From NCBI GenBank assembly GCA_963796105.1, contig CAWCKJ010000003.1, positions 96,001 to 160,000 on the forward strand: a DNA stretch of 64,000 nt. Reading direction: 5' to 3'. Position 1 is the first letter of the stretch, and each line of letters begins with the position of its first letter. The position numbers were made by a program, and so were the translations under genes. This document shows positions 5,301 to 47,701 of this stretch, one piece after another. The DNA comes from a candidate division FCPU426 bacterium (lineage in GTDB: Bacteria > Oederibacteriota > Muellerivitia > Muellerivitales > Muellerivitaceae). The notes beneath the pieces are model-generated. The model made no database searches and was not told the origin of the DNA. It saw nothing but the letters and a program-made list of their open reading frames with translations.

Positions 5301-6620
5301 GTGAATGGGAACACGGTTTGGACCAGTCCGTCCACGGGCGGCGGGGGGAATCGAAGCATCAATGTTGACGCTTCCGGTACGGTTTACGTGTGCGCGGATA
5401 ATGGTTCTATTTTCCTGATGGACAACTCAGGAACATTGCGGAATACCCTAACGGGCTATGGATTCAACGTGCCGACAGGCACCTTGAAAGTGGGCTCGAC
5501 GCTTTACGTGGATGACACATCCAACAACCGGATCGTGAGCCTGCCCCAGACTGGAGCTTATACCTATGGAACCGCGAGCGTGGTGGCGACCCTTACGAGC
5601 CCCTACGTTTTGACCTCGGACCTGGCGGGAAATTTCTACGCGGCTTGCAGCAATACCAATAGTTACAGCATCTACAACAGCGGGTGGGTTTTCCAGCAGG
5701 CCTGTACCAATAGCTCTCTCTTTTCAGGGGCTTTCGGGATCGCGGTGGATGAAACGGGCGCTATTTATGTGGCGGGACAAGGCTCAACATCCGTGGCGAA
5801 AATGCAGACTTGCATCAATCAACCGCCACAACCCACTTGCCCTCCGAGCGCGACCCCGACCGGCACCTTGAGCCCCTCTGTGACACCGACTCTCACGAAT
5901 ACCCCGACGTTGACCAATACGCCGTCTCCTTCGCCGACAAATACCTTCACTCAAACCCCGACATGGACCCCAAGCTTTACCGCGGCAAACACACCCACCA
6001 ATACACCAACACCGACTTATACCCCGACGTTTACGCTCTCCGGCACTCCTACGGATACCCCCACTATCACGAACAGCCCCACGCCCTGGCCGACGGGCGT
6101 TCCCACCTTTACCACCACTGATACTCCGGCGAATACCATGACGGGAACCTCAACATTTACGCCAACGATCACGCCGACGCCTTCTTATACGGACACTCCG
6201 TCGCCCACTGGAACTCCTACACCTTCGCCGACGGTCACGCCTACTTGGACGCCCACTGACATTCCGACTGACACTCCTGTCCCCACGAGCACATCTACCT
6301 CAACAGAGACGTCGTCACCCACGTCCACCTTCACGCCGACCCCCACTTGCGGGATCAGCCTGCTTTATCCCAATCCCGTTCGGGATGGCCATGGGGTTTC
6401 CTTCAATTACTCGTTTGATCGGCAGGAGCCTTTGGATGTGAAGGTCTTCACAGTGGCCTTCAGGAAGGTGTTTGACTCAAGCCAATTCGTCAAGGGGGCG
6501 GGAACCATCTCCTGGAACCTGACTGATAATGGGGGCAAACACCTGGCCAACGGTCTGTATTATGTCGTGATTCAAACGGATCAAGAACGATTCATACGAA
6601 AACTGCTTATCGTCCGCTGA
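2379..6620 (+). CDS. Large secreted NHL-repeat beta-propeller protein with Thr/Pro-rich linkers and T9SS-type-A-like C-terminal domain
   Basis: Signal peptide; repeated ADxVLGQ and VDSQGNLxVxDxxNNRVLR units; (TPT)n tracts at ~4900-5030 and ~5820-6350; C-terminus YPNP...FTVAFRKV...LANGLYY...RKLLIVR. Confidence 0.8.
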
Positions 6621-17392: not shown

Positions 17393-17481
17393 TTTTCCTC
17401 CAACGAGGTTCTTAAAAACCATTATGGCATATCATCCGGCTTTTGGGCTTTCAAGGGGAAAAAGCCGGAAGCGGGCATGGC

Positions 17482-17490
17482 TGTTATAAT
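17482..17490 (+). promoter_or_regulatory. Putative extended -10 promoter element
   Basis: TGTTATAAT just upstream of ATGs at 17494 and 17503. Confidence 0.45.
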
Positions 17491-17502
17491 GACATGCGGC
17501 TT

Positions 17503-19560
17503 ATGGACAAGGCCACATCAATCGATTTTTCTAAAAGGGAAACTTTGGGAAATCCTTCCGAGAGCGGAATAAAAACGTCGCAAAGGGACCGGCGTTTGTT
17601 TTGGTTCCTGGCCCTCCTTCCGGTTTTCCTGACCTTTTTGGCTTACCTGCCTTCTTTAAGCAACGGTTTCGTCAATTGGGACGATCCGGACAACATCCAG
17701 AACAACCTCCATATCCGATCCCTGGACGCCTCCTCTTTGGGCTGGATGCTCAGTTCCTTCTACCAGGGCTTTTGGTTTCCCCTAACGCTCTTTTCCCTCG
17801 CCCTGGATTACGCCATCGGGAGTTTGAACCCTGGGATTTACCACCTTCACAGCCTTCTCTTGCATTGCCTGAACACCTTCCTATTCTTTCTTTTTTGCTC
17901 GCGGTTTTTGACCTTAGCTCGGAGAGCCTCGGGGCTGGAAAATAGGACCGATGCCGGCGGCTGGGTGGTGAAATCCTCTTTCCTGGCCGCGCTCTTTTTC
18001 GGACTGAGCCCGGTCCATGTGGAAACGGTGGCTTGGGCGACTGACCGAAAGGATGTCCTCTGCGGGTTTTTCTACTTGGGCTCCCTCCTGGTTTACGTGG
18101 ATTACGCTTCAAGCTCGAAAAAGTGGAAACTATATGCCTGCCTCGGTCTTTTCCTGCTCGCGCTGATGTCCAAACCCATGGCCGTGACCCTTCCCCTTGT
18201 TTTTCTTCTGCTGGACGCCTGGCCCTTCAAGAGATTTGGAATAAAGGCTCTCTTGGAGAAATTCCCATTTTTGGCTGCTTCGGCGCTGGTCAGTTGGATG
18301 GCTCTCTTGGCTGAGAAACAGGTGGGTGCCATGCCGAGCGTCGAGGAAATTCCCTTTATTTACAGAATCGCTAATTCGCTTCATTCGATATTTTTTCATT
18401 TGTGGAAAATGATCGTCCCAGTGGATTTGACCGCGCTTTATCCCTTGGCGATCCATACGGAAATCGCTTCATTGAGGAACTTGGGCTTGCTGATCCTGTT
18501 TTTGTCGATTTCCTGGCTTTGCTTTTATGGCCGAAAGAAATGGCCCTTTCTGAGTTTGGCATGGCTGGGCTATTTAGTCATTTTGGCGCCTGTCTCAGGA
18601 CTTCTTCAAGTGGGCGGTTTAGCCGCCGCGGACCGTTACACTTATTTGACCTGCCTTGGGCCTTTTATTCTTTTAGCCTCAGGGATCGGGGCACTTGTTT
18701 CAAATCGAAACAAAATCACCGTCGTTGGGACTGTGGTCCTTGTATTTTTGATGGGCATGGGGACGATCAGGCAAGCCGGGACATGGAAGGACTCCGTCTC
18801 CCTTTGGGAAAATGTCCTGAAAATATATCCCGGCCTTTCCGGTGCGGCCTATTCCAACCTGGCACTGGCCTATGAAGGCGCGGGCAGGGGAGAAGAGGCC
18901 CTGCGCGCGAACGACCAGGCCTTAGCGCTTAATCCCCGCTCCGCCCATTTCCATGATCAAAAGGGTTTTCTTCTTTTCTACAAGGGGATGACCACTGAAG
19001 CCATTCAGGAGTTCAAGACGGCGATATTATTGGATCCCAAACAAGCCACGGCGCACAGGAACCTGGCGAACGCCGAATTGAAAACCGGGAATCCCCAGGA
19101 CGCCGAAAAAGATTTTGAGACGGCTGTCGAGATTGATCCTGGATTGGCCGACGCCCATAACTCCTTGGGCGCCCTATACCTGAGCCGAAATCAAAAAGAC
19201 CAGGCTCTCTCGGAGCTCAACCAAGCCCAAGCCTTGGAGCCTGAAAACATGAAATACTTGTTGGACTTGGCTTATGTTTACCAAAAATACGGGAAGTACG
19301 ACGAGGCCATTGACCTGTTCAAGCGCGGGATCGAGTTAAATCCGGGGCAGGGGGTTTATTATTTGGACCTGGGGATCGCTTATTACTTGAAGGGAATGTA
19401 CCAGGAGGCTTCCGAGCAATTGAAAAAGGCCTCCGAGCTGGAACCGAAGAACTCGGATATTCTCCGGAAACTGGGATTGGCCTACGCGCGGTTGGGGAAA
19501 AAAGACTTGGCGGTCGAGACCATCCGGAAGGCCATGGCTTTGGAAGCGGCAAAGCCTTAA
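17503..19560 (+). CDS. TMTC-like GT-C protein O-mannosyltransferase homolog with C-terminal TPRs (start uncertain, 17443-17503)
   Basis: FVNWDD acidic loop, PLT, PVHVETVAW..RKD, SKPMAVTLP, ADRYTY, WKDSVSLW, then about seven TPRs. Confidence 0.8.
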   Translation: MDKATSIDFSKRETLGNPSESGIKTSQRDRRLFWFLALLPVFLTFLAYLPSLSNGFVNWDDPDNIQNNLHIRSLDASSLGWMLSSFYQGFWFPLTLFSLALDYAIGSLNPGIYHLHSLLLHCLNTFLFFLFCSRFLTLARRASGLENRTDAGGWVVKSSFLAALFFGLSPVHVETVAWATDRKDVLCGFFYLGSLLVYVDYASSSKKWKLYACLGLFLLALMSKPMAVTLPLVFLLLDAWPFKRFGIKALLEKFPFLAASALVSWMALLAEKQVGAMPSVEEIPFIYRIANSLHSIFFHLWKMIVPVDLTALYPLAIHTEIASLRNLGLLILFLSISWLCFYGRKKWPFLSLAWLGYLVILAPVSGLLQVGGLAAADRYTYLTCLGPFILLASGIGALVSNRNKITVVGTVVLVFLMGMGTIRQAGTWKDSVSLWENVLKIYPGLSGAAYSNLALAYEGAGRGEEALRANDQALALNPRSAHFHDQKGFLLFYKGMTTEAIQEFKTAILLDPKQATAHRNLANAELKTGNPQDAEKDFETAVEIDPGLADAHNSLGALYLSRNQKDQALSELNQAQALEPENMKYLLDLAYVYQKYGKYDEAIDLFKRGIELNPGQGVYYLDLGIAYYLKGMYQEASEQLKKASELEPKNSDILRKLGLAYARLGKKDLAVETIRKAMALEAAKP

Positions 19561-23623: not shown

Positions 23624-26600
23624 ATGAAAATGAACAATAGAAAGACTAACGTTGAAAAAAAACGGGCCGCGATACCGCGCGGGATTTTTTTCTGCGGACT
23701 GCTTCTTCCGATTTTAATCCTTTCCATTCCCGTCATCCTCTCGGCGGCCGGCATCGAGGCTCCGAAGCCATTGGAGGAGGGGAGGGCTCTCCTGAAAGCC
23801 AGGGCCTACCACCTAGCCATGGAGCGGTTTCTCCTGGTGGAGGAAAAAAGCGAGAGTTCCCTGGAAAGGGCCATGGCCCTGAGATTCATCGGGGAAACCG
23901 AGTTCCGCGAGAAGGATTACGCGGCCGCTTACCAGGCCTACCAACAGTCCCTCCGCCTGAACCCCCTTTTTACGGGGGCCTTGGCCCTGGAGTTCAAATC
24001 CGCCGTCGCCTTGGTTTACCTCAAGAACTATCCCACGGCCGTCTCGAAGTTCCAGGAACTGGAAAAGAAGGCCTATGAGCCAAACTCCCTCTCCGACTTG
24101 TACTTTTGGGAGGCGGAATGCCATTTTCAGCTGGAGAAATACGACCTGGCGGGCGAGAAATACGGAAAGATCCTGAAGGACAATCCAGGCTATCAGTATC
24201 GGGACCTCGTGCGTTACCTCCAATCCTGGTGTTTCTTCCAGCAGGAGGATTACGACAAGGCCCTGGAAGGATTCCACCAGACCCTGGGCTCCACGGGCGA
24301 CAAGTCCCTCAAAAAACTGGCTTTGTTCCAGACCGGGGAAACCCAGTTCCGGATGGGCCGTTACTCGGACGCGGAGGGAACCTACCAGGAATTCCTGAAG
24401 AATTATCCCGATGACTTTCTAACCGTGGCGGCCCTTTACGGCCTGGGCTGGGTCTTCGGCAAGGAGGAGGACCATGAGCAAGCCGCCAAGAGTTTCGAGA
24501 AGGTCATTTCCGAATATCCCGACCACCCCCTGGCGCCCTGGGCCGCCGTAAGGGCGGGAACCGAGCAGAAGGCCCTGGGCCTTTTGGACAAGGCCCGGAA
24601 GGACTACAACTGGGGGCTGGATTCCTCCCCGGACCAATCACCGGCGGACCTGCTGGAATACGGCCTGGGATGGCTGGATTACGCGGACCAGAAATTCTCC
24701 GACGCCGGGAAACATTTTTCCGCGGTTGAGCATTTCCCCCAGGGAAGCGCCCTGAAGTGGGACGCGGCCTACCTGGAAGCGGGATGCCTTTACCAGGACG
24801 GCAAGTTCGACGAGGCCAGGGCGGATTACGGGAAGCTGAGGAGCCAGGCGCCCGCCAACCTCTCCGCAGACGCCGCCTATTGGGAAGGCTGGTGCGATTA
24901 CGCCAACGGCAAGTTCGACCTGGCTTTCGAGCAGTTCCGGCGTCTTTCCAAAACGGCACAAGGCGAGCTCCAGTCCCGGTCCCTCTGGGCGTCCGCGGAA
25001 ACGGCCTACCAGCTGCAGAAATACGATGAGGCCTCCAAGCTTTACGAGGCGGCCATGGAAAGCCATCCCTCGGCCACCATCACCCAGCAGTGCTATTCCG
25101 GCGTGGGTTGGAGCCTGTTCCAGGAGGAAAAATTCGAGGAAGCCCTGGCCCAATTCAAGAAAGCCGCACAGAAAAACCCCGATTCCCCCCTGGCGCTGGA
25201 GGCCCAGATCCGCTGCGGGGATTGTTATTACAATCTCCACGATTACGAGAAGGCACGGGAGTCCTACCAGAAGATCCTCGACGGGAAGGCCGGACCGCCC
25301 TACTCGCTCGACGCGGGGGAACAGCTGGGATGGTGCGATTACCGCCAGGAAAAATACCAGCAGGCCATCTATGACTGGGCCCTCCTCCTGAAAAAGAACG
25401 GCACCGAGGACCGACAGGCCCGCCTCACCTATTGGACCGCCTGGGCCTACTTCCGGGAAAAGAGGTTCCAGGACGCCCAGGAGGAATTCCAGAAAGTCGA
25501 GGCGGATTTTCCCAAGGACCCCCTCGCCCCCGAGGCCCATCTCCGGTCCGCCGACTGCCTTTTCAACCTCAAGAAGTTCAAGGAGGCTAAGGAAGCCTAC
25601 AAAAGCTTCCTCGCGGCTTATCCGGACCACTCGCTCCTTCCCGACGCGCTCTACGGACTGCAATGGTCCGCGGATAAGCTGGGCGAAAAGGGAGAGGTCA
25701 ACGCGGCCGCGGGGGAGTTCCTGGAAAAATTCCCCGCCAGCCGCTACGCCCCGGACGTTCAGTACCGCCTCGCGGACAGCCTGTTCCACGACCAGAAGTT
25801 CCCGCAGGCCGTCGAGGCCTTTAGGACACTCCTGAAAAAGTACCCGGACAGCACAGAGGCGCCCCGGGCCCTCTTCTGGCTGGGCGAGGCCCTCGTAAAG
25901 AACGACCAAAACGCGGAGGCTTTCCCGGTATTCCAGGAACTGCTGAAAAAGTACCCGGAGGACCCCCTGGCCCTGGAGGGGCAGTTCAGCCTGGGATCGC
26001 TGTATTTCGAGTCCAAGAACTACGCCAAGGCCCTGGAAACCTACACCCGTATTTTCCAGAACTACCCGGACCACCGCCTGGCCCCCCACTCCCTCTTCAA
26101 CAGCGCGGTCTGCGAGAACAAGATCGGGCACCCGGACAAGGCGCTCCAGGATTTCAAAATGCTCATGACGGACTATCCCCTGGATCCCCTGGCCCAGGAG
26201 GCCGGCATGAACGCCGGCATCCTGCTGGAGAACCTGGGCAAGCTGGACGAGGCCCTCAAGGCCTACGAGCTTTGCATGAAATCGCCCGACGAGAAACTCG
26301 CGGTGGAGGCGACCTACTACCACGCCGGGATTTTAAAGAAGCAGAAAAAATACGCCGACGCGGTGCAGGAATTCAACAAGATCACCCTGGATTACCGCAA
26401 GGAGAGCCAGTGGGTGCTGGTTTCCTTCGCCGCCATGGCGGAGTGCTATGAGCAATTGAAGGAGTATGACAAGGCCGCGTCCACCTACCGCCGAATCCTG
26501 AAATACACCAAGGTCAAGCAGTACACCACGGCAACCCTGAAACGCCTGAAGGCCCTGGAGCCTTTCTTGAAAAAGAAACCCAAGAAGGCCGTGAAACACC

Positions 26601-26632
26601 ATGCCGCGGCCCCGGCGGGGGATGCCCCATGA
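23624..26632 (+). CDS. Giant periplasmic TPR protein (BamD/CpoB-type repeats), ~1000 aa
   Basis: Basic N-terminus plus hydrophobic signal from ATG 23624; many repeats like YPDSTEAPRALFWLGE, YPDHPLAP, FPKDPLAPEA; stop overlaps next start (ATGA). Confidence 0.85.
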   Translation: MKMNNRKTNVEKKRAAIPRGIFFCGLLLPILILSIPVILSAAGIEAPKPLEEGRALLKARAYHLAMERFLLVEEKSESSLERAMALRFIGETEFREKDYAAAYQAYQQSLRLNPLFTGALALEFKSAVALVYLKNYPTAVSKFQELEKKAYEPNSLSDLYFWEAECHFQLEKYDLAGEKYGKILKDNPGYQYRDLVRYLQSWCFFQQEDYDKALEGFHQTLGSTGDKSLKKLALFQTGETQFRMGRYSDAEGTYQEFLKNYPDDFLTVAALYGLGWVFGKEEDHEQAAKSFEKVISEYPDHPLAPWAAVRAGTEQKALGLLDKARKDYNWGLDSSPDQSPADLLEYGLGWLDYADQKFSDAGKHFSAVEHFPQGSALKWDAAYLEAGCLYQDGKFDEARADYGKLRSQAPANLSADAAYWEGWCDYANGKFDLAFEQFRRLSKTAQGELQSRSLWASAETAYQLQKYDEASKLYEAAMESHPSATITQQCYSGVGWSLFQEEKFEEALAQFKKAAQKNPDSPLALEAQIRCGDCYYNLHDYEKARESYQKILDGKAGPPYSLDAGEQLGWCDYRQEKYQQAIYDWALLLKKNGTEDRQARLTYWTAWAYFREKRFQDAQEEFQKVEADFPKDPLAPEAHLRSADCLFNLKKFKEAKEAYKSFLAAYPDHSLLPDALYGLQWSADKLGEKGEVNAAAGEFLEKFPASRYAPDVQYRLADSLFHDQKFPQAVEAFRTLLKKYPDSTEAPRALFWLGEALVKNDQNAEAFPVFQELLKKYPEDPLALEGQFSLGSLYFESKNYAKALETYTRIFQNYPDHRLAPHSLFNSAVCENKIGHPDKALQDFKMLMTDYPLDPLAQEAGMNAGILLENLGKLDEALKAYELCMKSPDEKLAVEATYYHAGILKKQKKYADAVQEFNKITLDYRKESQWVLVSFAAMAECYEQLKEYDKAASTYRRILKYTKVKQYTTATLKRLKALEPFLKKKPKKAVKHHAAAPAGDAP

Positions 26633-28464
26633 ACCATTCCCGTTTTTTCCTCCTTGAGAGTCTCCTGACCCTCGGGCTTTTACTGGCAGTTCCGTCTTTT
26701 TTAACGGCGCAGAAAACGGACGCGGCCGCCGCCCCCGAGACGGAAACCATTCCCGCTGAACCGGCCTCCCTCTCACAGCCCGTGACGGCGCCGGCGGAGG
26801 GGATCCCGGGAAGCCAGGCCCCCGGCCCCGGACAAAAACCCTCCCAAGGGGAGGGGGAAAAAGCCCCTGCGCAAAGCCGCCCCACGGCGGTTCCCGAGTT
26901 CGCGCTGCCGGAGGTGGTGATTACGGGAGAGAACGAGCTGACCATCGGGGCGAACCGTTTGGACCGGAAAGAAAACGACGTGACACTGGGAACCAGGGAC
27001 TTGACCGGGTTCGAGCGGACTTTCAACGACCTTCCCGGCTTGAACAAGACCTTGACCGCCCTTTCCACCGAGGAGGCCGGCCCCTCCAAGAACACCGCGC
27101 TGGTCCTTCACTTGGGCGGAGGAATTCCTGACACTTACGGGGGATGGGGTCTTTTCGGCCAAGAATTCAAGGGACTGCAGTACCTGCTTTCGGGCTATTA
27201 CTCCAACTGGGGAGGCCAGTCCGCGGGAACGGGCCTCGACGGGGACCAGAAAGCCGGAGGGGAATTGGGATTCCAGATTTCCCCGAGGGGCTCTCCCGCG
27301 ATCAAATTGACCGCGGGATACGACAGGGTGGACGCGGAACTGCCTTATCAGAATTCCATCCGGGAACTGCATGAGGGCTGGAACTTCGGGGGAAGCCTGG
27401 ATTGGAGGCTCACCAGCCTGTTCATGGGCCAGGTGAAAATTACCTACCGGGACATATCCTTGAACTGCTTAGAACCTCGTCCACTTCCCCTTCTTCAACT
27501 CCAAACCAACAGCACCGGGGAGCTGGAAGGCGCTTTTAAGATGACAGCCGACGATATCGGCCCTTTCCTGAGCCGGTTTGTCCTGGACGCGGGGGGCCGC
27601 CACGCTTCCTCCGATTTCCCGACCGCCTGGGAGACCAGCTATGACTGGGGCTGGGCTGGTTTCCAGGCCGATTTCAAGGCGGGAGAAACCCTGGATCTCG
27701 TCGCGAAACTTCAGGCCCAGGGAGGCGGTGGATTGGACCTGCCGTTGAACCTATATCCGGTGGCGGACCTGAATTGGAGGGTCTTTGAGAGCAGCAAACT
27801 CGACCTCTACTGGAAAAGGGACCGCTACATCGACGGAATGAGCAATAATTTCCTGGGGACCGAGCACATCAGCCTATGGGGAGGTTTCCCTTCTCCCACG
27901 GAAATAACCGACGAGTGGGGCGGACGCCTGACCCAAAAGCTCAACGAGAGGTTCATCCTTTCATTGGCAGCCTCCACAGCCCTGATCAACGGATACCATG
28001 AGTGGTCGGATCTCAAACCTGGAAACCCGGATTACATCCAAACCTATTCCACGCTTAATCAGGTCCGGATTCAAAGGGCGGGGCTCGATATCCAATGGAA
28101 TTTCGCCAAGGATTACCAGGCCGCGGCTGCCTTTCAATGGACCGGATCCGAAAACACCGGGGGGGACGGGAAGAACCTGACGAACCTGCCGGCCGGCAAG
28201 GGGGTCCTCTCCATTTACCGCGGAAACGAGAAATTGGAGGCGAGGATGGAATTGGAACTTGCGTCCAGCCGCAACGCCTATGACACGGGGAGCGCGATCC
28301 TGCCGGCCTACGCGGCATTGAACCTGGACGCGGCCTACCATTGGACCAAGACCTTCTCCCTCTGGTTGAAAGGCGACAATTTAACGGGAACGGACTATGA
28401 GCTTCAGCCTGGATATTCCGAGCCCCAGTACCATCTCCGCGGAGGGGTGGAAATCATCTTCTGA
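26629..28464 (+). CDS. Outer-membrane beta-barrel, TonB-dependent-receptor-like
   Basis: Signal peptide; Pro-rich linker; TonB-box-like LPEVVITG; TBDR-like end LPAYAALNLDAAY...GDNLT..Y...GY...LRGGVEIIF with terminal Phe. Confidence 0.72.
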   Translation: MNHSRFFLLESLLTLGLLLAVPSFLTAQKTDAAAAPETETIPAEPASLSQPVTAPAEGIPGSQAPGPGQKPSQGEGEKAPAQSRPTAVPEFALPEVVITGENELTIGANRLDRKENDVTLGTRDLTGFERTFNDLPGLNKTLTALSTEEAGPSKNTALVLHLGGGIPDTYGGWGLFGQEFKGLQYLLSGYYSNWGGQSAGTGLDGDQKAGGELGFQISPRGSPAIKLTAGYDRVDAELPYQNSIRELHEGWNFGGSLDWRLTSLFMGQVKITYRDISLNCLEPRPLPLLQLQTNSTGELEGAFKMTADDIGPFLSRFVLDAGGRHASSDFPTAWETSYDWGWAGFQADFKAGETLDLVAKLQAQGGGGLDLPLNLYPVADLNWRVFESSKLDLYWKRDRYIDGMSNNFLGTEHISLWGGFPSPTEITDEWGGRLTQKLNERFILSLAASTALINGYHEWSDLKPGNPDYIQTYSTLNQVRIQRAGLDIQWNFAKDYQAAAAFQWTGSENTGGDGKNLTNLPAGKGVLSIYRGNEKLEARMELELASSRNAYDTGSAILPAYAALNLDAAYHWTKTFSLWLKGDNLTGTDYELQPGYSEPQYHLRGGVEIIF

Positions 28465-28518
28465 GTTTATCGAGCCTGATTTGAAAAAAAGAGAACGGCT
28501 GGGTGTAAGGTCCGACTT

Positions 28519-28878
28519 TTAAGGGACTGCCGTGACGGGGGATTTGGCCTCGGTACCTTCAGTGGGGAGTCCCGCTTCCGACCATTCCAGGATGCCTCCG
28601 GGATAGTTCTCCGCCTGCATGCCTTGCTCCTTCAATACCACGGCAGCGTTGTGGCTCGACAGGGAATCCGACCGGCTGGCGCCGTAGGTGATGAAGAACC
28701 TTCCCTTGCCGTATTTTTTCTCAACGGCCAGCACGAAGCTCCGGACATTCTGCCCGAAGGCGATGAAGTCCGATCCCTTGATGTGGAGTTTCTCAAAATC
28801 GCTTTTGGGAAGGACGCCCAACAGCACCGTGTTGGCGTTTTTGAGTTTTTTTAAAACTGTTTCCTTCGACATGGCCAT
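28519..28878 (-). CDS. Single-domain rhodanese-like protein lacking the active-site Cys
   Basis: FEKLHIKGS, ITYG (usually YC), YPGGILEWSEAGLPTE. Confidence 0.75.
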   Translation of the reverse strand: MAMSKETVLKKLKNANTVLLGVLPKSDFEKLHIKGSDFIAFGQNVRSFVLAVEKKYGKGRFFITYGASRSDSLSSHNAAVVLKEQGMQAENYPGGILEWSEAGLPTEGTEAKSPVTAVP

Positions 28879-29126
28879 GCTCCGCCTCTTTCCCCAACCC
28901 TCACCCCAATGATTCTAGACCTTTGCGGGGAAATTAGCAGAAGAAAGAGAAAATAAATATGCGTGTCGGGCGGGCCAATAGGCCGGGTTTTCCCGATTTG
29001 AGCCGGAGGGATCCAACCCGGTCCAGGGTACGGAGGGGTCAGGTTTACCCTGGAGCGTTATGCGGTGGTTGTGCTACCCTTGACGGGTTGGTATAGGCCT
29101 TTCGTTTTAATTTCCGGGAGGGTTCA

Positions 29127-29741
29127 ATGGCGCAAGATTTTTCTCTTTTCGAGGTGATCTCAAAGGGCGGGTGGACCATCGGCTTTTTGTTCCTCATGTC
29201 GATCGTGGTGTTCGCCGTTCTTTTCGAGAGGCTGAGCTTTTACCGCAAAAACCTGAGGGGGCGCGAGGAGGTCCTGGCGGGCCTGGAATCCTTCCTCAAC
29301 AAGGGCAACCTTCACGAGAGCCTCGAAGCCTGCGACCGGGACGGGACATTCCTGGCCAAGGTGGTCCAGGCGGGATTGAGGGCGAAACTGGAGAAGACAG
29401 GGCCCTCGGAATGCATGGAACGGGAGGCCAAGATACAGCTTTTAAGGCTGGAAAAACGCCTGCCCCTCCTGGCGACCATCGGAAGCACCGCCCCCTTCGT
29501 GGGATTGTTCGGGACCGTCCTGGGAATCATCAGGGCCTTCCGCGATTTGGCCGCCGCCAACAGCGGGGGAGCCGCGGTGGTGTCCCAAGGGATCGCCGAG
29601 GCCCTGGTGGCCACGGCCTCCGGACTCTTCGTGGCCATCACCGCCGTGTTCATCTATAACTGGTTCCAAAGCAAGATCAACGCCATGGCGCTGGAGGCGG
29701 AAATCGTGGTCTCGGAAATAGCCGAAAGGCTGGGGGCCTGA
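29127..29741 (+). CDS. MotA/TolQ/ExbB proton channel protein
   Basis: LATIGSTAPFVGLFGTVLGIIRAF...GIAEALVATASGL. Confidence 0.95.
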   Translation: MAQDFSLFEVISKGGWTIGFLFLMSIVVFAVLFERLSFYRKNLRGREEVLAGLESFLNKGNLHESLEACDRDGTFLAKVVQAGLRAKLEKTGPSECMEREAKIQLLRLEKRLPLLATIGSTAPFVGLFGTVLGIIRAFRDLAAANSGGAAVVSQGIAEALVATASGLFVAITAVFIYNWFQSKINAMALEAEIVVSEIAERLGA

Positions 29742-29744
29742 GAC

Positions 29745-30221
29745 ATGGAATCCCGCCTCAGGCCCAAGGCCAAGCTGATGTCCGAGATCAACATGGTGCC
29801 TTTCACCGACGTGGTTCTGGTTTTGCTGGTGATCTTCATGGTCACCACCCCTTTCCTGTTCCAAGGCGCCTTCCAGGTGAAGCTTCCCAAAGTGGCGGCG
29901 CCTTCCCCGAATCTGCCTGAAACCTTCACCATCACGATCGCCCAGGGGGACAAGGTTTACGTCAACGACAAGGAAACCAGCATGGACGACCTCCAGGGCA
30001 AGTTGAAGGATTTGATCGCCCGGAAACCCGGATCCCTGGTCATGATTAACGCCGACAAAAACGTGTCCCACGGGACGGTCATGGGCGTCATGTCGGAGGC
30101 TTACCAGGCTGGAATCACAAAGGTGGGGGTGGCTGTCGAGATCGCGAATAACCCGGGGGCGCCCGTTACCGCGGGTATTCCACCAGCCAATAGGGCCCAA
30201 GCCCCCGTATCCGTGAAGTAA
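29745..30221 (+). CDS. ExbD/TolR family protein
   Basis: EINMVPFTDVVLVLLVIFMVT with conserved TM Asp; INAD motif. Confidence 0.95.
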   Translation: MESRLRPKAKLMSEINMVPFTDVVLVLLVIFMVTTPFLFQGAFQVKLPKVAAPSPNLPETFTITIAQGDKVYVNDKETSMDDLQGKLKDLIARKPGSLVMINADKNVSHGTVMGVMSEAYQAGITKVGVAVEIANNPGAPVTAGIPPANRAQAPVSVK

Positions 30222-30270
30222 CAGCTGTTCAATCAGCCGGGAACCGGCTTGATTTCATGAGGAATGACAG

Positions 30271-31047
30271 ATGGACCGTGAGTTTCAAAAATCCATTTTT
30301 TACTCGGCCCTGTTCCACGCGCTTCTCTTCCTGATTTTTTTCCTGTTGTACCGTTCCTTCATCCTGGTGCGCACGCCCCTGCTGATGGACCTGACCCTGA
30401 TCGGGGAAATGTCGCAAGGCCAGGGCATGGGATCGCCGGCGCCCCACGCGGGAGCGGAACCAGGCCAAATGCCGCCGGCCCAAACCGCCGGTGAATTCTC
30501 GACCCCCCGGAAGGAAGCGGCGAAACCCCCGGTCCCGAATCACGAAAAACCCGAAGCCGCGGTTAAAAAGCCCTCGAAACCCAAGCTTCATTCCGGGAAC
30601 GCCAGCTCCGAATCCTACCTTGAAAGTTTGGAAAAGAAAGCCCCCATCGGGTTCAACATCAAAAAAGACGTCACTGGCGATATCAAGACCACCGCCGGTT
30701 TGGGCCAGGCAGGCGTGGCGGGGACTCCCGAAGGGAACCCCCAAATCGAGGGGGAACTGGCGGCCAGGAGCATCAAGCGCAGGGTGAATCCGGCCTACCC
30801 GGATTGGGCCAAAAAGCAGGGGATTGAGGCCACTGTGCGGTTCCATTTGACGGTGATGCCCAACGGTTTGTTGAAGGATGAACTGGATCTCGAGCAGACC
30901 TCGGGTTACCGCGAACTCGACCGAGTGGTGTACGAGGCCCTGATCCAATGGGAATTCGAGCCCCTGCCGCCGGAATTGCCCCAGGTGGACCAGTCCGGAA
31001 TCATCACCTTCACATTCAGCCTCAATAACGCCTCCTCCTTCCCATGA
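30271..31047 (+). CDS. TonB/TolA-family energy transducer
   Basis: N-terminal TM with SALFH (SHLS-type), Pro/Lys-rich linker, TonB_C domain PAYPDWAKKQGIEATV...SGYRELD...WEFEP. Confidence 0.9.
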   Translation: MDREFQKSIFYSALFHALLFLIFFLLYRSFILVRTPLLMDLTLIGEMSQGQGMGSPAPHAGAEPGQMPPAQTAGEFSTPRKEAAKPPVPNHEKPEAAVKKPSKPKLHSGNASSESYLESLEKKAPIGFNIKKDVTGDIKTTAGLGQAGVAGTPEGNPQIEGELAARSIKRRVNPAYPDWAKKQGIEATVRFHLTVMPNGLLKDELDLEQTSGYRELDRVVYEALIQWEFEPLPPELPQVDQSGIITFTFSLNNASSFP

Positions 31048-33149
31048 TTTATTTTTTGCTCGCGGGCGGGGCCCTTTTTTGGACCGGGTTGGCCCTGACC
31101 GCCTCGGCCCCGGGCATCGTTGGCGGGGACGCCCCGGAGTTGACCAGCGCGGCCTTCCATTTGGGCTCGGCCCACGCGCCAGGCTACCCCCTCTACGTGG
31201 CCCTGGTGAGGATCTTCCTTCAGATGCCTCTCGGGACCCCCGCTTTTCGATCCACCTTTTTTTCCATCTTGGTCCAGGGCGCAGCTTTCGTCATTCTAGC
31301 CCATGCCCTCAAGAACCTGCCAGGAAGCCGGCTGAGGGAAGGAGAAAGATGGGGCCTGGCGTTCCTGATATCCTGCCTGGTCATGTCAGGCCCACTGGTT
31401 TTCCACCAGTTCCTAAGTCCCGAGGTGTTCGCTCTCCACTTTTTTTTCATCGCCCTATTCCTGCTCCTGGTTTTCAAAAAGGATTCACTCGGTTTTCTGG
31501 CCACCGCTTTTGTTTCGGGCGCGGCCCTCACCCACCAGCATTTGGCCCTGCTGGTTCTCCCGGCCTTATTGTGGAATTACCGCTCCTTCCTTGGAAGACC
31601 CAAGACCCTTCTTTACGGGATTTCGTTATTCCTGTTGGGACTATCGGTTTACCTTCTTCTCCCCCTGCGGGCTGTCCAGCATCCATTGGCAAATTGGGGG
31701 CATCCGGATAATTTCCGACAATTTCTCTACCATCTGGGAAGGACCCAATACGGCGGAGACATTACCGGCGGAAAATTCATGAACGGCCTCCAGCTTCTTT
31801 GGCTCTATCTCAAGGATTATTTCCGTGAAATATTGGGATTGGGACTGCCCCTGGTTCTACTAGGTCTCTGGATAGGTTACCGTAGATTTAGTGTTGCCTA
31901 TTGGATCGGGTTCTCAACCCAATTCCTGTTGCTTCCTTTCCTGATCCGGGCCCCGAATGATCCTGAGAATAATTTCGTCAACGGGGCTTTCCTCACCCCC
32001 GCCATTCTTTGGTTTTCCCCGCTCCTGTTCCTGGGATTGGAATGGGCCTATGAAAAGGCGGGGAAGTTCCGTTTTTGGGCGACAGCCCTTGTGGCCTTGC
32101 AGGTCCTCATCGGCGCCGGCATCACCTTCGGCGAGAAGGATTCCTCCAGGAATCTCGCGGTGGAGGACGTCGGGAGGGATATTTTCAGGCAGATGCCGAG
32201 ACGGTCTGTTCTCTACAGCGAGGGCGACGCCGTGACCTTTTCCCTGGCTTATTTAAACCTGGTCTTGGGCCTCAGGCCCGACCTGGATCTTTTCGACCGG
32301 ACGGGGGGGCTTTTCAAGGATCTGTACCAGCTTCTGGATTACCGGGGGAGTCCAAGCGTCACTTTGGATTACCTGGTCGGCAAGGAAAGGGCTTACGAGT
32401 CGATTCGGCAACCCGTGGACATCTATTACAGCGAATCCACCTATTCACCAGGCAGGGCCCTGACGATGACCGGTTTGCTTTTCAAGGTCACGGAGGGGAA
32501 TATGGGTTTGGGCCCGATGGACCTTTGGAACGGCTTCCGGCCTCCCCGGATAGAAAGGCGCCATGATTATTTCTCGAGGGAAACAGGGGCAAGGTACTTT
32601 CTTTTCAAAGCATCCTGGGACCTGGACCAGGCCAAGAACCAGGCTTATTATCAGGCGGACATGGACCGGCTCGGGGAACTGACCTTCGATAATTACAGGC
32701 TTCTCGTGAACGAGGGATTAGTCGAGAGCGGCCACGGTAGGACGGACCAGGCGGTGCTGGACTATGAGAAGGCCATCGAGATCACGCCGGATGCCTCCCT
32801 GGCCTGGGTTGACCTGGGCATTGTCGCACACAAACAGGGGCGCGTCGCGGATGCGGTGAGGTACTACCGAAAAGCCGTGGCCCTGGAGCCCTATAACGCT
32901 GTCTACCACATCCACTTGGGTTACGAGTATTACCAAAACGGACAAGCCCAGGAGGCCATCGGGGAATGGGAAACAACCAGGAGGATTGATCCCTCGAACC
33001 CCGAGGCCTATCACAACCTGGGCCTCATTTACATGAAGACCAATCCGGAATACGCCGCCCAGATGATCCGGCAATTCCTGGGTATATATCCGGGTGCGGG
33101 GGACCGACCTGCACTTGAGAAATGGCTCGCGGCTCAGCCCGCCCAGTAG
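31044..33149 (+). CDS. DUF2723 / TMEM260-like GT-C glycosyltransferase with C-terminal TPRs
   Basis: GDAPEL...LGSAHAPGYPLY signature, EVFALH, YLLLPLRA..P..NWG, GDAVTF; TPRs at the C-terminus; start overlaps tonB stop. Confidence 0.82.
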   Translation: MIYFLLAGGALFWTGLALTASAPGIVGGDAPELTSAAFHLGSAHAPGYPLYVALVRIFLQMPLGTPAFRSTFFSILVQGAAFVILAHALKNLPGSRLREGERWGLAFLISCLVMSGPLVFHQFLSPEVFALHFFFIALFLLLVFKKDSLGFLATAFVSGAALTHQHLALLVLPALLWNYRSFLGRPKTLLYGISLFLLGLSVYLLLPLRAVQHPLANWGHPDNFRQFLYHLGRTQYGGDITGGKFMNGLQLLWLYLKDYFREILGLGLPLVLLGLWIGYRRFSVAYWIGFSTQFLLLPFLIRAPNDPENNFVNGAFLTPAILWFSPLLFLGLEWAYEKAGKFRFWATALVALQVLIGAGITFGEKDSSRNLAVEDVGRDIFRQMPRRSVLYSEGDAVTFSLAYLNLVLGLRPDLDLFDRTGGLFKDLYQLLDYRGSPSVTLDYLVGKERAYESIRQPVDIYYSESTYSPGRALTMTGLLFKVTEGNMGLGPMDLWNGFRPPRIERRHDYFSRETGARYFLFKASWDLDQAKNQAYYQADMDRLGELTFDNYRLLVNEGLVESGHGRTDQAVLDYEKAIEITPDASLAWVDLGIVAHKQGRVADAVRYYRKAVALEPYNAVYHIHLGYEYYQNGQAQEAIGEWETTRRIDPSNPEAYHNLGLIYMKTNPEYAAQMIRQFLGIYPGAGDRPALEKWLAAQPAQ

Positions 33150-34234: not shown

Positions 34235-34239
34235 CGAAA

Positions 34240-34716
34240 ATGAAATTATTAGCGGGACTCATCCTACTCTTCTCCTCCGCCCTCGCGGTTTACGGGAAAG
34301 ACAACACTGACCTGGCCGCCCAGAACCAAATGGGAAACCAGATCAACCTTCCCTCGATGATTACCAGCCCGACGGAAACGCCCACTCCGGTGGTTCATAG
34401 GACTCCCGTGGTCACGAAACCCGGAATCAGCGTCATTCCTAACCCCGCCCGAGGAAAAAAATTGTCTTTCCGGATCATGGCCCCTTCCCTGAGCAAGGCC
34501 TATATCCGCGTTTACGACCGCAATTTCGACCCCGTGACTGTTTTGGTGCAGGAAGGGGAGCAGCTTTTCGACGTGATGTGGAACCTCCAAAAGGTGCCGG
34601 AAGGCCCCTACTATTACCAGGCCCAGCTGGATGAGAAGCGCGGCGGCAAGGTCACCAAATTCCAGATGCAAAAATTCGCCGTGATCAAAGACGAGGATCC
34701 GGAGGAAAAACCATGA
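34240..34716 (+). CDS. Small secreted protein: Thr/Pro linker plus CTD-like Ig domain
   Basis: Signal peptide from ATG 34240; PTETPTP; PNPARG...IRVYD...WNL...GPYYY...KFAVIK. Confidence 0.65.
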   Translation: MKLLAGLILLFSSALAVYGKDNTDLAAQNQMGNQINLPSMITSPTETPTPVVHRTPVVTKPGISVIPNPARGKKLSFRIMAPSLSKAYIRVYDRNFDPVTVLVQEGEQLFDVMWNLQKVPEGPYYYQAQLDEKRGGKVTKFQMQKFAVIKDEDPEEKP

Positions 34717-43928: not shown

Positions 43929-45572
43929 CCTGAATTTTGCGCCTAATAAAAAAACCATCTAGGAAACCATTATAGGATAAGGGTTGCGAAGCCAACTCAT
44001 CCTAAAAGAGGGTCCCCCAGATGGTGAAACGTCAAGATACGCCTCAGAAATCAAACCCGCAAGTCCAGAAAAAAGCCAATCGAAACGGGAGAATCGCGCC
44101 CAAGATTACGGCCAATACTCCCGTAGGTATTTGCGAAGACCGCCTAACAGCTTTTGGCGGATTGTTGGCATTGGCGAAGATGTTCGACCTTCTTGATTTT
44201 GAGCGGGAATTCAAAAAACACTATGCCGCACCTAAACGCCTTCCGAATTTGGGCCACTACCGGATGGTAAGCGGCATCCTAATGCTTCTTTTCATCGGGT
44301 TCCAAAGACTTGGCCATTTTGCCTACCTGCGGGGTGAGGTCATGCTGTGCGGTTTACTGCGGGTTCCCTTGTTGCCGGTAGTGACAACTTTTTGGAGATA
44401 CCTGAGGTCGCTGGGGATCGGGCAGTCGGCATCGTTGCTGAATCTGAGTGGGGCGTTACGGGCCAAGGTTTGGGGACAGGTGAAATATGCCCCCAAGAAG
44501 GTGGAGATCAACATCGATACCACCACCGCAACGGTCTACGGAAATATCGAGGGAAGCCGAAAAGGATACAACCCCAAGCACCGGGGCAAGAAGGGACTGA
44601 GGCCCATTCTGTGTTTTCTCCAGGAAACCCGGGAATATTTGTGCGGAACCCAAAGACGCGGAACCACCCTTAGTTCTGAGGAAGTGGCCCGCCAAATTAG
44701 ACAATTCCGGCGACTCTTGCCGTCCTGTGTCCGGACGATTCTGGTGCGCGGTGACGGTGAAATGATCGGCTGGGAAAGCGTGAAAGCCTGTGAAAAAGAA
44801 GGGTTTTCTTTCATCTTCGGGAACAAGCGGCATGACCCGCCTTTCACGAAAAAGGGTTGGTACCGCCATGGAGAACACGAATACAACGAATGTGTCCATC
44901 AACCCATAGGCTGGCAACAACCAGTCCGGTTTGTGGCGATGAGGACGCTGGATGAAAAAGCGCGGGAGAAACAATTGAGCCTTCCTGAAATGGAAGGATA
45001 TGTCTACCGAATCTTCGCGACCAACTGTCTGGGAGCACCCCATCGGGTGGTTGAGGAATACGACCTGCGCGCGGATGTGGAAAACCTGATTGGTGAGGCG
45101 CAACGGGAGGGGTTATTAGCAATTCCCTCTAAGAGTTTCCAAAGCCACCATGCTTTTTTCCAGATCGTGATGCTGGCTTACAACCTCTGGAGGTGGATGA
45201 AACTAATGGTGGGCCATTGTGGAAAAGAAAAGCGACCGGGAAAGAAGCCACAGGAGAAGGAACAGATCACCATGCCGGACCATACCCTTCGGATCGCACG
45301 TTTGAAGATGCTCTTTGTAGCCGCCCGAATCCAGTATCACGGCCATCGGGATGTGGTGAGGTATTCAATCCATGATGATAGGACAGCGGGCCTATTGGGT
45401 TTCCTCAAATACCTTGATCGAAAACGATTGGAAAGACCCAGGGCGGCCTAGAAGTGGCTTGGTGCAAAAAATTCTTTGCACATAAGTTCACTTCTGATGA
45501 AAATGGCCACTGTCGGGTCCCGATTCAGGCCGATCTGGCCACGGAATCGGTAAACTCGGTGCAAAATTCAGG
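43929..45572 (+). mobile_element. IS1380-family insertion sequence, 1644 bp, apparently intact
   Basis: IRL CCTGAATTTTGCGCC (43929-43943) and IRR GGTGCAAAATTCAGG (45558-45572) match at 14/15; flanking TAATA duplication at 43924-43928 and 45573-45577. Confidence 0.92.
44021..45451 (+). CDS. IS1380-family DDE transposase
   Basis: LTAFGGL, IDTT...YG..EG...GYNP, VRGD, Y..RADVENLIGE, LAYNL. Confidence 0.9.
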   Translation: MVKRQDTPQKSNPQVQKKANRNGRIAPKITANTPVGICEDRLTAFGGLLALAKMFDLLDFEREFKKHYAAPKRLPNLGHYRMVSGILMLLFIGFQRLGHFAYLRGEVMLCGLLRVPLLPVVTTFWRYLRSLGIGQSASLLNLSGALRAKVWGQVKYAPKKVEINIDTTTATVYGNIEGSRKGYNPKHRGKKGLRPILCFLQETREYLCGTQRRGTTLSSEEVARQIRQFRRLLPSCVRTILVRGDGEMIGWESVKACEKEGFSFIFGNKRHDPPFTKKGWYRHGEHEYNECVHQPIGWQQPVRFVAMRTLDEKAREKQLSLPEMEGYVYRIFATNCLGAPHRVVEEYDLRADVENLIGEAQREGLLAIPSKSFQSHHAFFQIVMLAYNLWRWMKLMVGHCGKEKRPGKKPQEKEQITMPDHTLRIARLKMLFVAARIQYHGHRDVVRYSIHDDRTAGLLGFLKYLDRKRLERPRAA

Positions 45573-45790
45573 TAATATAAAGGGAAAAAAGCTAGAGGCG
45601 GCTAAACCTCCAGAAGGGATTCAAAGTCAATTCGGCTTTTGGATAAGATGCGAGGGATTGATTATACTTTCACCATGGGGTGGGTAGGTCATCCCGTTGT
45701 TTGCCATTGACCCGAACTTTATTTGAATCCGGCGGTACGGCTTGTCCCACTCCGGCCTCGAATCGGAGATACTTTGAAAAGAAGGCTTTA

Positions 45791-47701
45791 ATGCTTCGTG
45801 TAAAACTACTGCTGACTATTTTTACACTTATTGCCCTTGCCGCGTTAGGATTCGGCGCCATCCATGCCGAGGAAAATGGATCTCAAAAAAAATCCTACGC
45901 GAAGTCAGCGCCGGGCCATCCGAATTTCGCACCTGGGTTGGTGGTTTTGGAACTGAACAAGGGAGCGGATTTGATGGCGGCTCAACATGAAGTGGAATCC
46001 CTTGGCTACAAGGTCAAGCGCGCCTCCAAATGGAGCGGGACCCTGGTGGTTCAGGTTCAAGCCGGAGAGGAACTTCAATTTGTTGATTATTTCAAGAATC
46101 ATTTCCTTTTTAGGAGGGTCTTGCCGGACTATCTCGGCGTTCCGGATGTGACAAATTACGTACCGTTCTCCTACCCGAATGATCCCGCCTATTCGGCGAA
46201 TGCCAGCAGTTCTTCAGGTCAAAACGATTGGTATTTGAACCAAGTGGGAATAGACGAAGCATGGAACGATCCTGATCCCTGGATGTCCAATGCGTCCAAG
46301 GGTCGATCTAGCGCCGTCATTGCCATTGTTGATACCGGTATCAATCTCGTCCATGAGGATGTAACTTCTCATTTATGGAGGGATCCCGGTAGCGGGAATC
46401 TCGGCCACAACTTTGTTGATGCATCAACGAGCATTTCAGATGTGTCTGGGCACGGCACTTATGTCACGGGAGTGGCTTCTGCTAATACCGACAATGCCCT
46501 AGGAGGGGCCGGCTTTTGCGTCAACTGCACGGTGATGGTTTTAAGGGCCAGCTCGGACGAGACCGCAAGCGATTCAGTGCCGTTTGCCGACGCCATCAAT
46601 TACGCTGTGCAAAACAAAGTCATGGCCATTAATCTGAGCTGGTCTTTTCCGCCCGGCACATTTCAAACCTACTGCGCCGACGCTTGGAAGGCGGGAAGCC
46701 TTGTGGTGTCCAGCATGGGAAATTCGGGCGACAACACCCAATACAGTCCCGCTGGGGACACGAACGCGTTGGGGATCGGCGCTACCGAGCCCGCCGGGAA
46801 CCTGTCTCCCTATTCTTCATTTGGGGCCTGGGTCGGAATGTGCGCGCCGGTAGGCCAAATCGCCAATGGGGACGGGGTGTTTACGGATGGGGTCACCTGC
46901 GGTTCAAACCCATGCGGGGATCCTTGCACAAGTTGTTATGTGGTCGCGGACGGAACGAGTTTTGCCGCTGCGCAAGTCAGCGCCATGGTCGCCATCCTGG
47001 CGGATTTGGGTCTGTCCAACGACGACATCGTTAACCGCCTCTATAAGACAGCTGAACATCTGGGCGCTTCCTATCCCAATACCCTGACCGGCTGGGGAAA
47101 TTTGAACGCCTACCGCTGCTTGGCTTCTTGCAGGCCGCCATCGTCCCTGACCGCTGTGGTTTCCTCAACCGGGGTGAGTCTTGCGTGGAATCCCCCCAGG
47201 ACCATCGCTTTCGCGACCAGCGAATATATTATTCTGCGTTCAACTGTCCCGGGAGGGCCTTACATTCAAGTGGGTCAAACGTCCAATGGGAACACCACTT
47301 CCTTCATCGACCTGAGCGCGATGACAGGGAAGAGTTATTATTACGTTGTCAAAGCCGTGGATAGCCAGCAATTGCAGACTCTTCCCTCGAATGATGTGTT
47401 ACTCATCGACGACGGGCCGTCTTATCCATTCTGCCCGGTTCTTTTTCCCAACCCACTCAAAGAAGCCTCTCCCTCGTGGATTTATCTGTCGGGCAAGAGT
47501 TCTGGGTCCATTCAGGTTCAAATATACACAACTGCATTTCGAAAAGTGAACGAGGTTTCTCTTTCAATCGGGGAGTCGGGTAACTACGGGCCATTAGAGC
47601 CGAAGGATTGGTGGAACAAACCATTGGCTAATGGTCTTTATTATCTGCTTATTACAGGAGAGGGAAAACATTCGCTCCGGAAATGGCTTATCATTAAATA
47701 A
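45791..47701 (+). CDS. Secreted S8 subtilase with FN3 domain and T9SS-type-A-like C-terminal domain
   Basis: Signal peptide from ATG 45791; triad IVDTG / GHGT / GTSFA; FN3 (LAWNPP...YYYVVKAVD); CTD FPNP...YTTAFRKV...LANGLYY...RKWLIIK. Confidence 0.88.
   Translation: MLRVKLLLTIFTLIALAALGFGAIHAEENGSQKKSYAKSAPGHPNFAPGLVVLELNKGADLMAAQHEVESLGYKVKRASKWSGTLVVQVQAGEELQFVDYFKNHFLFRRVLPDYLGVPDVTNYVPFSYPNDPAYSANASSSSGQNDWYLNQVGIDEAWNDPDPWMSNASKGRSSAVIAIVDTGINLVHEDVTSHLWRDPGSGNLGHNFVDASTSISDVSGHGTYVTGVASANTDNALGGAGFCVNCTVMVLRASSDETASDSVPFADAINYAVQNKVMAINLSWSFPPGTFQTYCADAWKAGSLVVSSMGNSGDNTQYSPAGDTNALGIGATEPAGNLSPYSSFGAWVGMCAPVGQIANGDGVFTDGVTCGSNPCGDPCTSCYVVADGTSFAAAQVSAMVAILADLGLSNDDIVNRLYKTAEHLGASYPNTLTGWGNLNAYRCLASCRPPSSLTAVVSSTGVSLAWNPPRTIAFATSEYIILRSTVPGGPYIQVGQTSNGNTTSFIDLSAMTGKSYYYVVKAVDSQQLQTLPSNDVLLIDDGPSYPFCPVLFPNPLKEASPSWIYLSGKSSGSIQVQIYTTAFRKVNEVSLSIGESGNYGPLEPKDWWNKPLANGLYYLLITGEGKHSLRKWLIIK

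Follow-up and report, generated by a model that had tools for sequence, protein, structure and literature searches.

A phylum-wide TPR-barrel-exbB-exbD-tonB operon of candidate division FCPU426 and its possible role in force-dependent outer-membrane upkeep

The 64,000-nucleotide stretch of DNA analyzed here (the window; positions 96,001 to 160,000 of contig CAWCKJ010000003.1, assembly GCA_963796105.1) comes from a candidate division FCPU426 bacterium and contains, with rpsA directly upstream, an operon whose core system is five genes: a giant tetratricopeptide repeat (TPR) protein, a predicted outer-membrane barrel, and an ExbB-ExbD-TonB motor and arm (Table 1). The operon resembles a Ton or Tol machine, but it lacks both the plug that characterizes a TonB-dependent transporter and the TolB and Pal proteins that characterize a Tol-Pal system. 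All of the open reading frames (ORFs) named in a preliminary description of this DNA, made from the sequence alone, are present, and the row of genes that it reported (TPR, barrel, antisense gene, exbB-exbD-tonB and DUF2723-TPR) is real, including two ATGA overlaps, one at 26629-26632 between the TPR stop and the barrel start, and one at 31044-31047 between tonB and the DUF2723 gene. A scan for promoters and terminators in the region gave matches at chance level.

Table 1. Genes and features of the operon, with positions in the window.
Feature	Position	Strand	Remarks
Giant periplasmic TPR protein, 1002 aa	23624..26632	+	Core; signal-peptide-like segment, no lipobox; CpoB/BamD-type repeats
Predicted 22-strand TonB-transporter-fold barrel, 611 aa	26629..28464	+	Core; structure models, fold match, no Plug match
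Barrel features			TonB-box-like PEFALPEVVITG at residues 89-100; predicted unfolded tail to ~155; no plug; C-terminal Phe
Rhodanese-like gene	28519..28878	-	Insertion seen only in the source genus; outside the system
ExbB/TolQ-type motor subunit, 204 aa	29127..29741	+	Core; three hydrophobic segments
ExbD/TolR-type motor subunit, 158 aa	29745..30221	+	Core; Asp22 in transmembrane helix
TonB-like arm, 258 aa	30271..31047	+	Core; Ser12-x3-His16 helix, TonB_C at 173-251
TMEM260-like (DUF2723) membrane glycosyltransferase with C-terminal TPRs, 701 aa	31044..33149	+	Variable neighbor, overlaps tonB

The barrel protein has no Pfam match of any kind and only a faint siderophore-receptor score, and no NCBIfam family specific to it turned up. 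Its fold is nevertheless predicted clearly: AlphaFold2 models built from two alignments, of 52 and then 84 rows, both contain 22 strands spanning residues 156-610, and the second has 435 residues with a predicted local distance difference test (pLDDT) value of at least 90. The top Foldseek matches of the model are the TonB-dependent transporters Cir, PqqU, PirA and OprC, and BtuB aligns with it over 415 residues (Z 22.7, root-mean-square deviation 3.4). Residues 86-149 fall below a pLDDT of 50 in both models; a shallow alignment is not the cause of this predicted unfolded tail, because it remained unfolded with 84 rows as it had with 52. The motif EVVITG occupies residues 95-100, and the gap from there to the first modeled strand, which starts at residue 156, is about 55-60 residues, close to the ~70 residues of the preliminary description.

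Homologues tell the same story of a box without a plug. Pfam Plug matches none of 35 short-tailed family members and both of two canonical controls; a canonical plug is not recognizable here. The box glycine and the end of the first strand are 54-75 residues apart in every one of the 84 homologues in the alignment, whereas the stretch between box and plug end by itself takes up 117-120 residues in canonical receptors (9 of 19 could be parsed by pattern). The box itself, PxFxLPEVVITG, is conserved across the 84 homologues (G100 in all, P94 in 80), and the tail beyond it is conserved only among the close family. Because the box is conserved, Plug is unmatched, the spacing is short and the tail is modeled as unfolded, the predicted structure is that of a transporter barrel in which the TonB box is kept and the plug domain is gone.

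The TPR protein agrees with its earlier portrayal as a ~1000-residue protein of CpoB/BamD type that is translationally coupled to the barrel. It passes the cut-offs of the YbgF/CpoB model (298 versus 90 bits, through eight repeated stretches) and of the BamD model (189 versus 81 bits, again through repeated stretches); its score to a 263-position CpoB model is under cut-off, as is that to PorW/SprE (153 bits, cut-off 250). It is best conserved at residues 600-720, and its homologues likewise have a signal-peptide-like segment and no lipobox. A complex prediction that paired barrel residues 86-611 with residues 545-985, that half of the TPR protein only, scored 0.00 against a mark of 0.32, and we count it neither way.

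In the TonB-like arm an N-terminal helix is followed by a conserved short strand, a Pro/Gly-rich linker and the TonB_C domain. The three segments of ExbB, the Asp of ExbD, and the Ser-x3-His and TonB_C of the arm recur across the phylum. Three other exbB-exbD-tonB sets are present in the genome, each beside a plug-bearing transporter, and a fifth MotA/ExbB match is flagellar. All four motor paralogues score best to tolQ/tolR models, in each case under the cut-off.

Conservation of the operon is extensive. We searched 41 genomes first, of which a narrow profile matched 30, and examined 20 of these loci (18 from the same family, one from the same order and one from another family); the genes are syntenic in these relatives, with TPR-barrel-exbB-exbD-tonB in the same order in 20 of 20, most of them close kin. 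With a broader profile, a barrel match that extends into the box region was counted by hand in at least 74 of the 78 genomes of the phylum, at a single place in each. In this count one barrel gene, at G065:C11:172812-174474, lies in two frames, either by an assembly error or because it is a pseudogene, another is divided between two contig ends, and four genomes are undecidable from the matches listed. For other families, 28 loci were examined: the TPR gene lies directly before the barrel in all 26 that have upstream DNA, exbB directly follows the barrel in 26 of the 28, and tonB was found in 26; the exceptions are one locus without a motor within ~9 kb, one with three inserted genes, and one with exbB only. 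This constancy of order, together with the position of the other three motors beside plugged transporters, supports a motor dedicated to the barrel operon.

The surroundings are less constant. The flanks vary among core genes (rpsA, fabD, rsfS, rph, and a UvrD-type helicase), and no consistent uptake, catabolic or ATP-binding cassette (ABC) neighbor was found across the examined loci. The DUF2723 gene follows tonB in five of the 19 relatives with DNA there and is missing in the other 14, and the TMEM260-like glycosyltransferase has 11 paralogues genome-wide; it is best seen as a co-transcribed neighbor and not as a part. The rhodanese insertion is present in one of the 20 relatives' loci. The preliminary description thus drew the boundary too widely: the five-gene core stands, and the glycosyltransferase, which it had included in the machine, and the rhodanese gene are variable insertions. 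A SpoIID-domain gene lies no more than 3.2 kb from tonB in nine of 46 loci, abutting it in three, these loci being kin and not independent. In loci L086, L087 and L102, from three families, a gene that fuses TPR and SpoIID lies against tonB or overlaps it. In L037, L040, L042, L046 and L047 a LysM-like (by eye) and/or a small OmpA-domain lipoprotein gene is inserted between rpsA and the TPR gene; such lipoproteins are peptidoglycan-binding neighbors in several relatives and are not fixed.

The absence of tolB and pal from the neighborhood, noted in the preliminary description, extends to the whole source genome (96.8% complete), in which TolB_N is unmatched and neither TolB nor Pal reaches its cut-off; the best Pal match scores 80 versus 125 bits and is in a 467-aa frame. 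TolB and Pal were over cut-off in none of the 41 genomes, with two of 14 control genomes positive, and TolB_N is in none of 22 other genomes of the source family. TolB_N matches do occur in 14 of the 78 phylum genomes, and the four inspected we read as not being TolB: they are proteins of 329-497 aa with no Pal-sized gene or motor recognized within 1.5 kb, and three of them lie beside glycosyltransferase-like ORFs.

Genes for assembly and secretion also occur elsewhere in the genome. BamA is present in the genome, separate from the barrel. Neither of the two Pfam LptD barrel models has a match there, and next to an lptF-like gene near G000:C3 703580 (L126) there is a long ORF that contains LptD_N, a divergent LptD-like gene, so that the barrel need not be an LptD stand-in; nor do we regard it as either BamA or LptD, given that its predicted fold is of the TonB-transporter type. 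Identification of the barrel as SprA and of the TPR protein as PorW/SprE fails as well, because SprA is over cut-off as a separate 2017-aa gene (G000:C3:212289-218342) some 90 kb from the operon, and the TPR protein is below the PorW/SprE cut-off. In the same genome 114 ORFs end in a domain resembling the C-terminal domain (CTD) of exported proteins, and SprA-like genes are present in 73 of the 78 phylum genomes. GldM was not found in 41 genomes and GldL was not found in the source genome, by searches that had no positive control.

A search with the TPR protein matched records of Bacteroides finegoldii, Parabacteroides distasonis and Phocaeicola massiliensis, and in all seven Bacteroidota loci (these three species and four metagenome loci) a TPR gene of ~1000 aa is followed by a barrel of 540-595 aa. 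Pfam Plug is unmatched in the three of these barrels that were scanned, and the Bacteroidota barrels share a C-terminal NLL...GY pattern with the barrel family. Scores to the TPR profile are 183-298 bits, compared to 148 bits for the best other TPR protein in the source genome, and a profile-profile comparison, for the barrel only, gives a probability of 99.6. The pairs include WP_237924153.1 and WP_237924155.1 in B. finegoldii, and WP_005859277.1 and WP_008772738.1 in P. distasonis. The gene order in B. finegoldii is ahpF-ahpC-NUDIX-TPR-barrel; in Bacteroides thetaiotaomicron, ahpC is BT_2812, BT_2816 is a secreted TPR protein and BT_2817 is a 'TonB-dependent receptor', and published BT_2817 primers match both ends of the B. 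finegoldii barrel gene. The B. thetaiotaomicron counterparts of the pair are likely to be BT2816 and BT2817, judging by gene order and architecture, an assignment that is new in this analysis. BT_2844 was also considered and was rejected, being a lipoprotein whose N-terminus differs. PG1651, a further candidate counterpart, is listed as a TPR protein.

The likely counterparts bring published data with them. In Table S1 of PMC6222051, BT_2816 is listed as being of the signal-peptidase-I type and has label-free quantification values of 10.51 in the outer membrane and 9.33 in the inner, and BT_2817 has 10.64 and 9.19; the enrichment of BT_2816 at the level of BT_2817 fits a TPR protein held on the barrel. 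Both genes are absent from the essential-gene table of PMC8121099, and their co-fitness is 0.80, at rank 1 in both directions. The fitness rows covered are those for 'specific phenotype' and top co-fitness, the 'specific' call requiring little effect in most experiments. Specific but mild fitness defects of -1.2 to -1.7 are recorded for both genes with arabinogalactan, heparin and 350 mM NaCl (PMC8121099 Tables S2, S3), and BT2817 alone has one with aspartate as the nitrogen source. Apart from these two, no gene occurs in both the heparin list (20 genes) and the arabinogalactan list (14 genes); each list holds nutrient-binding outer-membrane proteins of its own locus, and in 350 mM NaCl three of seven rows are negative, the third being a glycine betaine/proline permease (PMC8121099). 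Outside the tables the two genes figure in the main texts, in the passages that concern them, as a localization marker only. By analogy with these likely orthologues, the TPR protein of the operon is likely to reside at the outer membrane and to share mild phenotypes with the barrel. B. thetaiotaomicron also served as a control genome, in which neither SprA nor a CTD was matched.

Comparison with known systems places the operon between several of them. It is like the Ton system (BtuB, Cir, FyuA, OprC) in its predicted 22-strand fold, TonB-box-like strand near the N-terminus and C-terminal Phe, as well as in the TonB_C arm with its Ser-x3-His helix and the ExbD Asp; it differs in having a 54-75-residue tail, predicted to be unfolded, in place of a plug, in its fixed giant TPR protein, and in occupying a single site in each genome, among core genes and outside any uptake context. 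With Tol-Pal (TolQ-TolR-TolA-TolB-Pal-CpoB) it shares the motor family, a TPR protein with CpoB-like repeats within the operon, a housekeeping placement and, presumably, a short box that is gripped and pulled by a TonB/TolA C-domain, but it has neither TolB nor Pal, its partner is an integral barrel, its TPR protein is about four times longer, and the likely B. thetaiotaomicron pair has no bile or antibiotic phenotype. The BT2816/BT2817-type pairs are alike in the secreted ~1000-aa TPR protein directly before a 540-595-aa barrel that has no Pfam plug and an NLL...GY end, and differ in having no adjacent motor genes and in their low sequence similarity. A periplasmic TPR scaffold combined with an outer-membrane barrel is also the plan of BcsC, PgaA, AlgK-AlgE, Slam and the SprA-SprE pair of the type IX secretion system; however, these have barrels of 14-18 or 36 strands, with no TonB box and no ExbBD-TonB, and no polymer synthase is linked to the operon. 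The lidless, reduced-plug 'Type S' fructan transporters of Bacteroides (bioRxiv 10.1101/2025.11.13.688124) likewise are TonB-transporter barrels with a small or absent plug, but they are glycan importers found through neighboring carbohydrate enzymes, and the available part of that preprint mentions no giant TPR protein or dedicated motor. No description of the operon was found in a full-text literature search, the coverage of which excludes most subscription papers, and the passages available from a 2025 survey of such motors (PMC12204202) do not mention a TPR-barrel-exbB-exbD-tonB operon.

We tentatively favor an explanation in which the five genes form one envelope-spanning machine that applies force to maintain the outer membrane when it is under osmotic or mechanical load, occupying the niche of Tol-Pal and not that of single-nutrient uptake, although we would stop short of calling this probable. 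Powered by the proton gradient, the ExbB/ExbD-type motor would pull by way of a TonB-like arm of its own, and the arm would grip the TonB-box tail of the barrel, as happens in Ton and Tol systems. In the absence of a plug that could be unfolded, the force would be borne by a short tail attached to the barrel, on which the giant, periplasm-spanning TPR protein likely docks; we infer this contact, the binding of the TonB box and the Tol-Pal-like role from the parts and their relatives. Upkeep is favored because of single-copy retention, placement among core genes, the lack of TolB and Pal, the CpoB-like TPR protein, the SpoIID neighbors, and the mild salt and polysaccharide phenotypes. An energized housekeeping envelope machine, as opposed to an ordinary uptake receptor, was already proposed in the preliminary description, and this is upheld by the missing plug, the single place per genome, the synteny, the core flanks, and the three plugged Ton operons elsewhere.

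A number of observations weigh against envelope upkeep in a Tol-Pal niche. The tolQ/tolR scores are no sign of Tol identity, because the three ordinary Ton operons score alike. Two genomes of another family have both the barrel and a Pal-like lipoprotein (120 and 114 bits, with a cut-off of 125), which weighs against a strict replacement of Tol-Pal, and no peptidoglycan-binding partner is a fixed member of the operon. Tol-Pal mutants usually have leaky outer membranes. The B. thetaiotaomicron pair has no specific bile-salt or antibiotic phenotype, even though these conditions were screened (PMC8121099), and the co-fitness of adjacent genes may in part reflect polar insertions. The link to Bacteroidota itself rests on architecture, because the barrels there score 41-94 bits to the barrel profile, within or below the 48-114 bits of ordinary transporters; exbB, exbD or tonB is nearby in none of the seven loci. 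Finally, a role as an anchor leaves the retention of the full 22-strand lumen unexplained. With no barrier phenotype and a retained lumen, both export or quality control and small-solute import remain rivals.

Energized export or quality control would make the TPR protein a conduit that holds protein cargo while TonB pulls the tail from the lumen, so that cargo passes or is extracted, helping transporters and surface lipoproteins to reach or keep their place in the outer membrane. An open lumen with a long TPR protein is the plan of the known exporters discussed above, the TPR protein passes the BamD cut-off, and the B. thetaiotaomicron pair aids growth on two unrelated glycans, each with its own outer-membrane proteins; but the genome has its own BamA, LptD-like gene and SprA, no cargo gene is linked, and the B. 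thetaiotaomicron pair is dispensable and most tested glycans show no specific defect, and we regard this explanation as unlikely. Export, one half of the export or outer-membrane biogenesis system first proposed, is retained as a rival; as to the other half, both genes are dispensable in B. thetaiotaomicron, so that an essential role in biogenesis is unlikely, at least in that species. Slightly less likely than export is a reduced-plug importer of small solutes such as ions, osmolytes or amino acids, gated by the short tail and energized by its own TonB. Importers share this fold and TonB box, short fructans enter Bacteroides through transporters whose plugs are small or absent (bioRxiv 10.1101/2025.11.13.688124), the one other gene with a negative score in 350 mM NaCl is the glycine betaine/proline permease, and BT2817 alone is needed with aspartate as the nitrogen source. 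Import, however, leaves the fixed 1000-residue TPR partner and the phylum-wide single-copy retention unexplained, there is no consistent catabolic or ABC neighbor, and small solutes would cross a pore that has no plug without any need for energy.

The suggestion in the preliminary description that the machine handles CTD-tagged or glycosylated proteins is weak and, in our estimation, improbable and the least likely of the rivals. It would have the operon export such proteins or energize their export, for example by replacing the GldL/GldM motor of the SprA translocon, and it can draw on the over-cut-off SprA, the many CTD-ended ORFs, the wide presence of SprA-like genes, the searches without positive control in which GldM and GldL were not found, and the 153 bits of the TPR protein to PorW/SprE. 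That score is under the cut-off, though, and SprA is far from the operon; B. thetaiotaomicron likely has the pair, yet neither SprA nor a CTD was matched there; 14 of 19 relatives lack the glycosyltransferase; and both systems are near-universal in the phylum, so that co-occurrence there cannot decide.

Some further features of the window and the genome lie outside the operon. A second membrane protein with C-terminal TPRs, which by eye resembles a TMTC-type glycosyltransferase, is encoded at 17443-19560 of the window, and the 11 TMEM260-like genes suggest heavy protein glycosylation in the source genome. A small secreted protein with a conserved C-terminal part (window 34237-34716) is encoded between fabD and der in most relatives and was matched in 10 of the 20 relatives' loci; it looked CTD-like by eye, and was rejected as a CTD protein on finding no match to TIGR04183 or to a CTD profile built from the genome. 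Two secreted proteins in the window do end in a CTD (2379-6620, 1413 aa; 45680-47701, 673 aa), and a 476-aa transposase-like ORF at 44021-45448 belongs to a multicopy insertion element with the same ends at C4:1605955 and C2:237525. Elsewhere the genome encodes a family of aromatic-rich, barrel-like proteins of 740-820 aa, with similar C-termini and partly in tandem pairs (G000:C3:11461-16012, C4:199566-201944, C4:351009-355680 and C7:50627-53086).

A wider question is how the outer membrane is maintained and constricted in bacteria that lack Tol-Pal; the available passages of PMC12204202 report that tol-pal loci are lacking in Bacteroidetes and that further stabilizing systems are to be expected. 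The operon is a phylum-wide candidate for such a system, in which a TonB-transporter barrel would have been put to a new use, and the naming of BT2816/BT2817 moves the question from uncultured genomes to a genetic model with tagged constructs and fitness data. If it is a true exporter, it would add to the few known TonB-powered export routes. More speculatively, and as something we hold to be possible but doubtful, these genes may represent a third branch of Ton/Tol machinery: a transporter barrel that has lost its plug would act with a periplasm-spanning TPR protein as a force anchor or protein conduit and would maintain the outer membrane in the many diderms lacking Tol-Pal, Bacteroidota included, and the machine might also power SprA where GldLM is absent.

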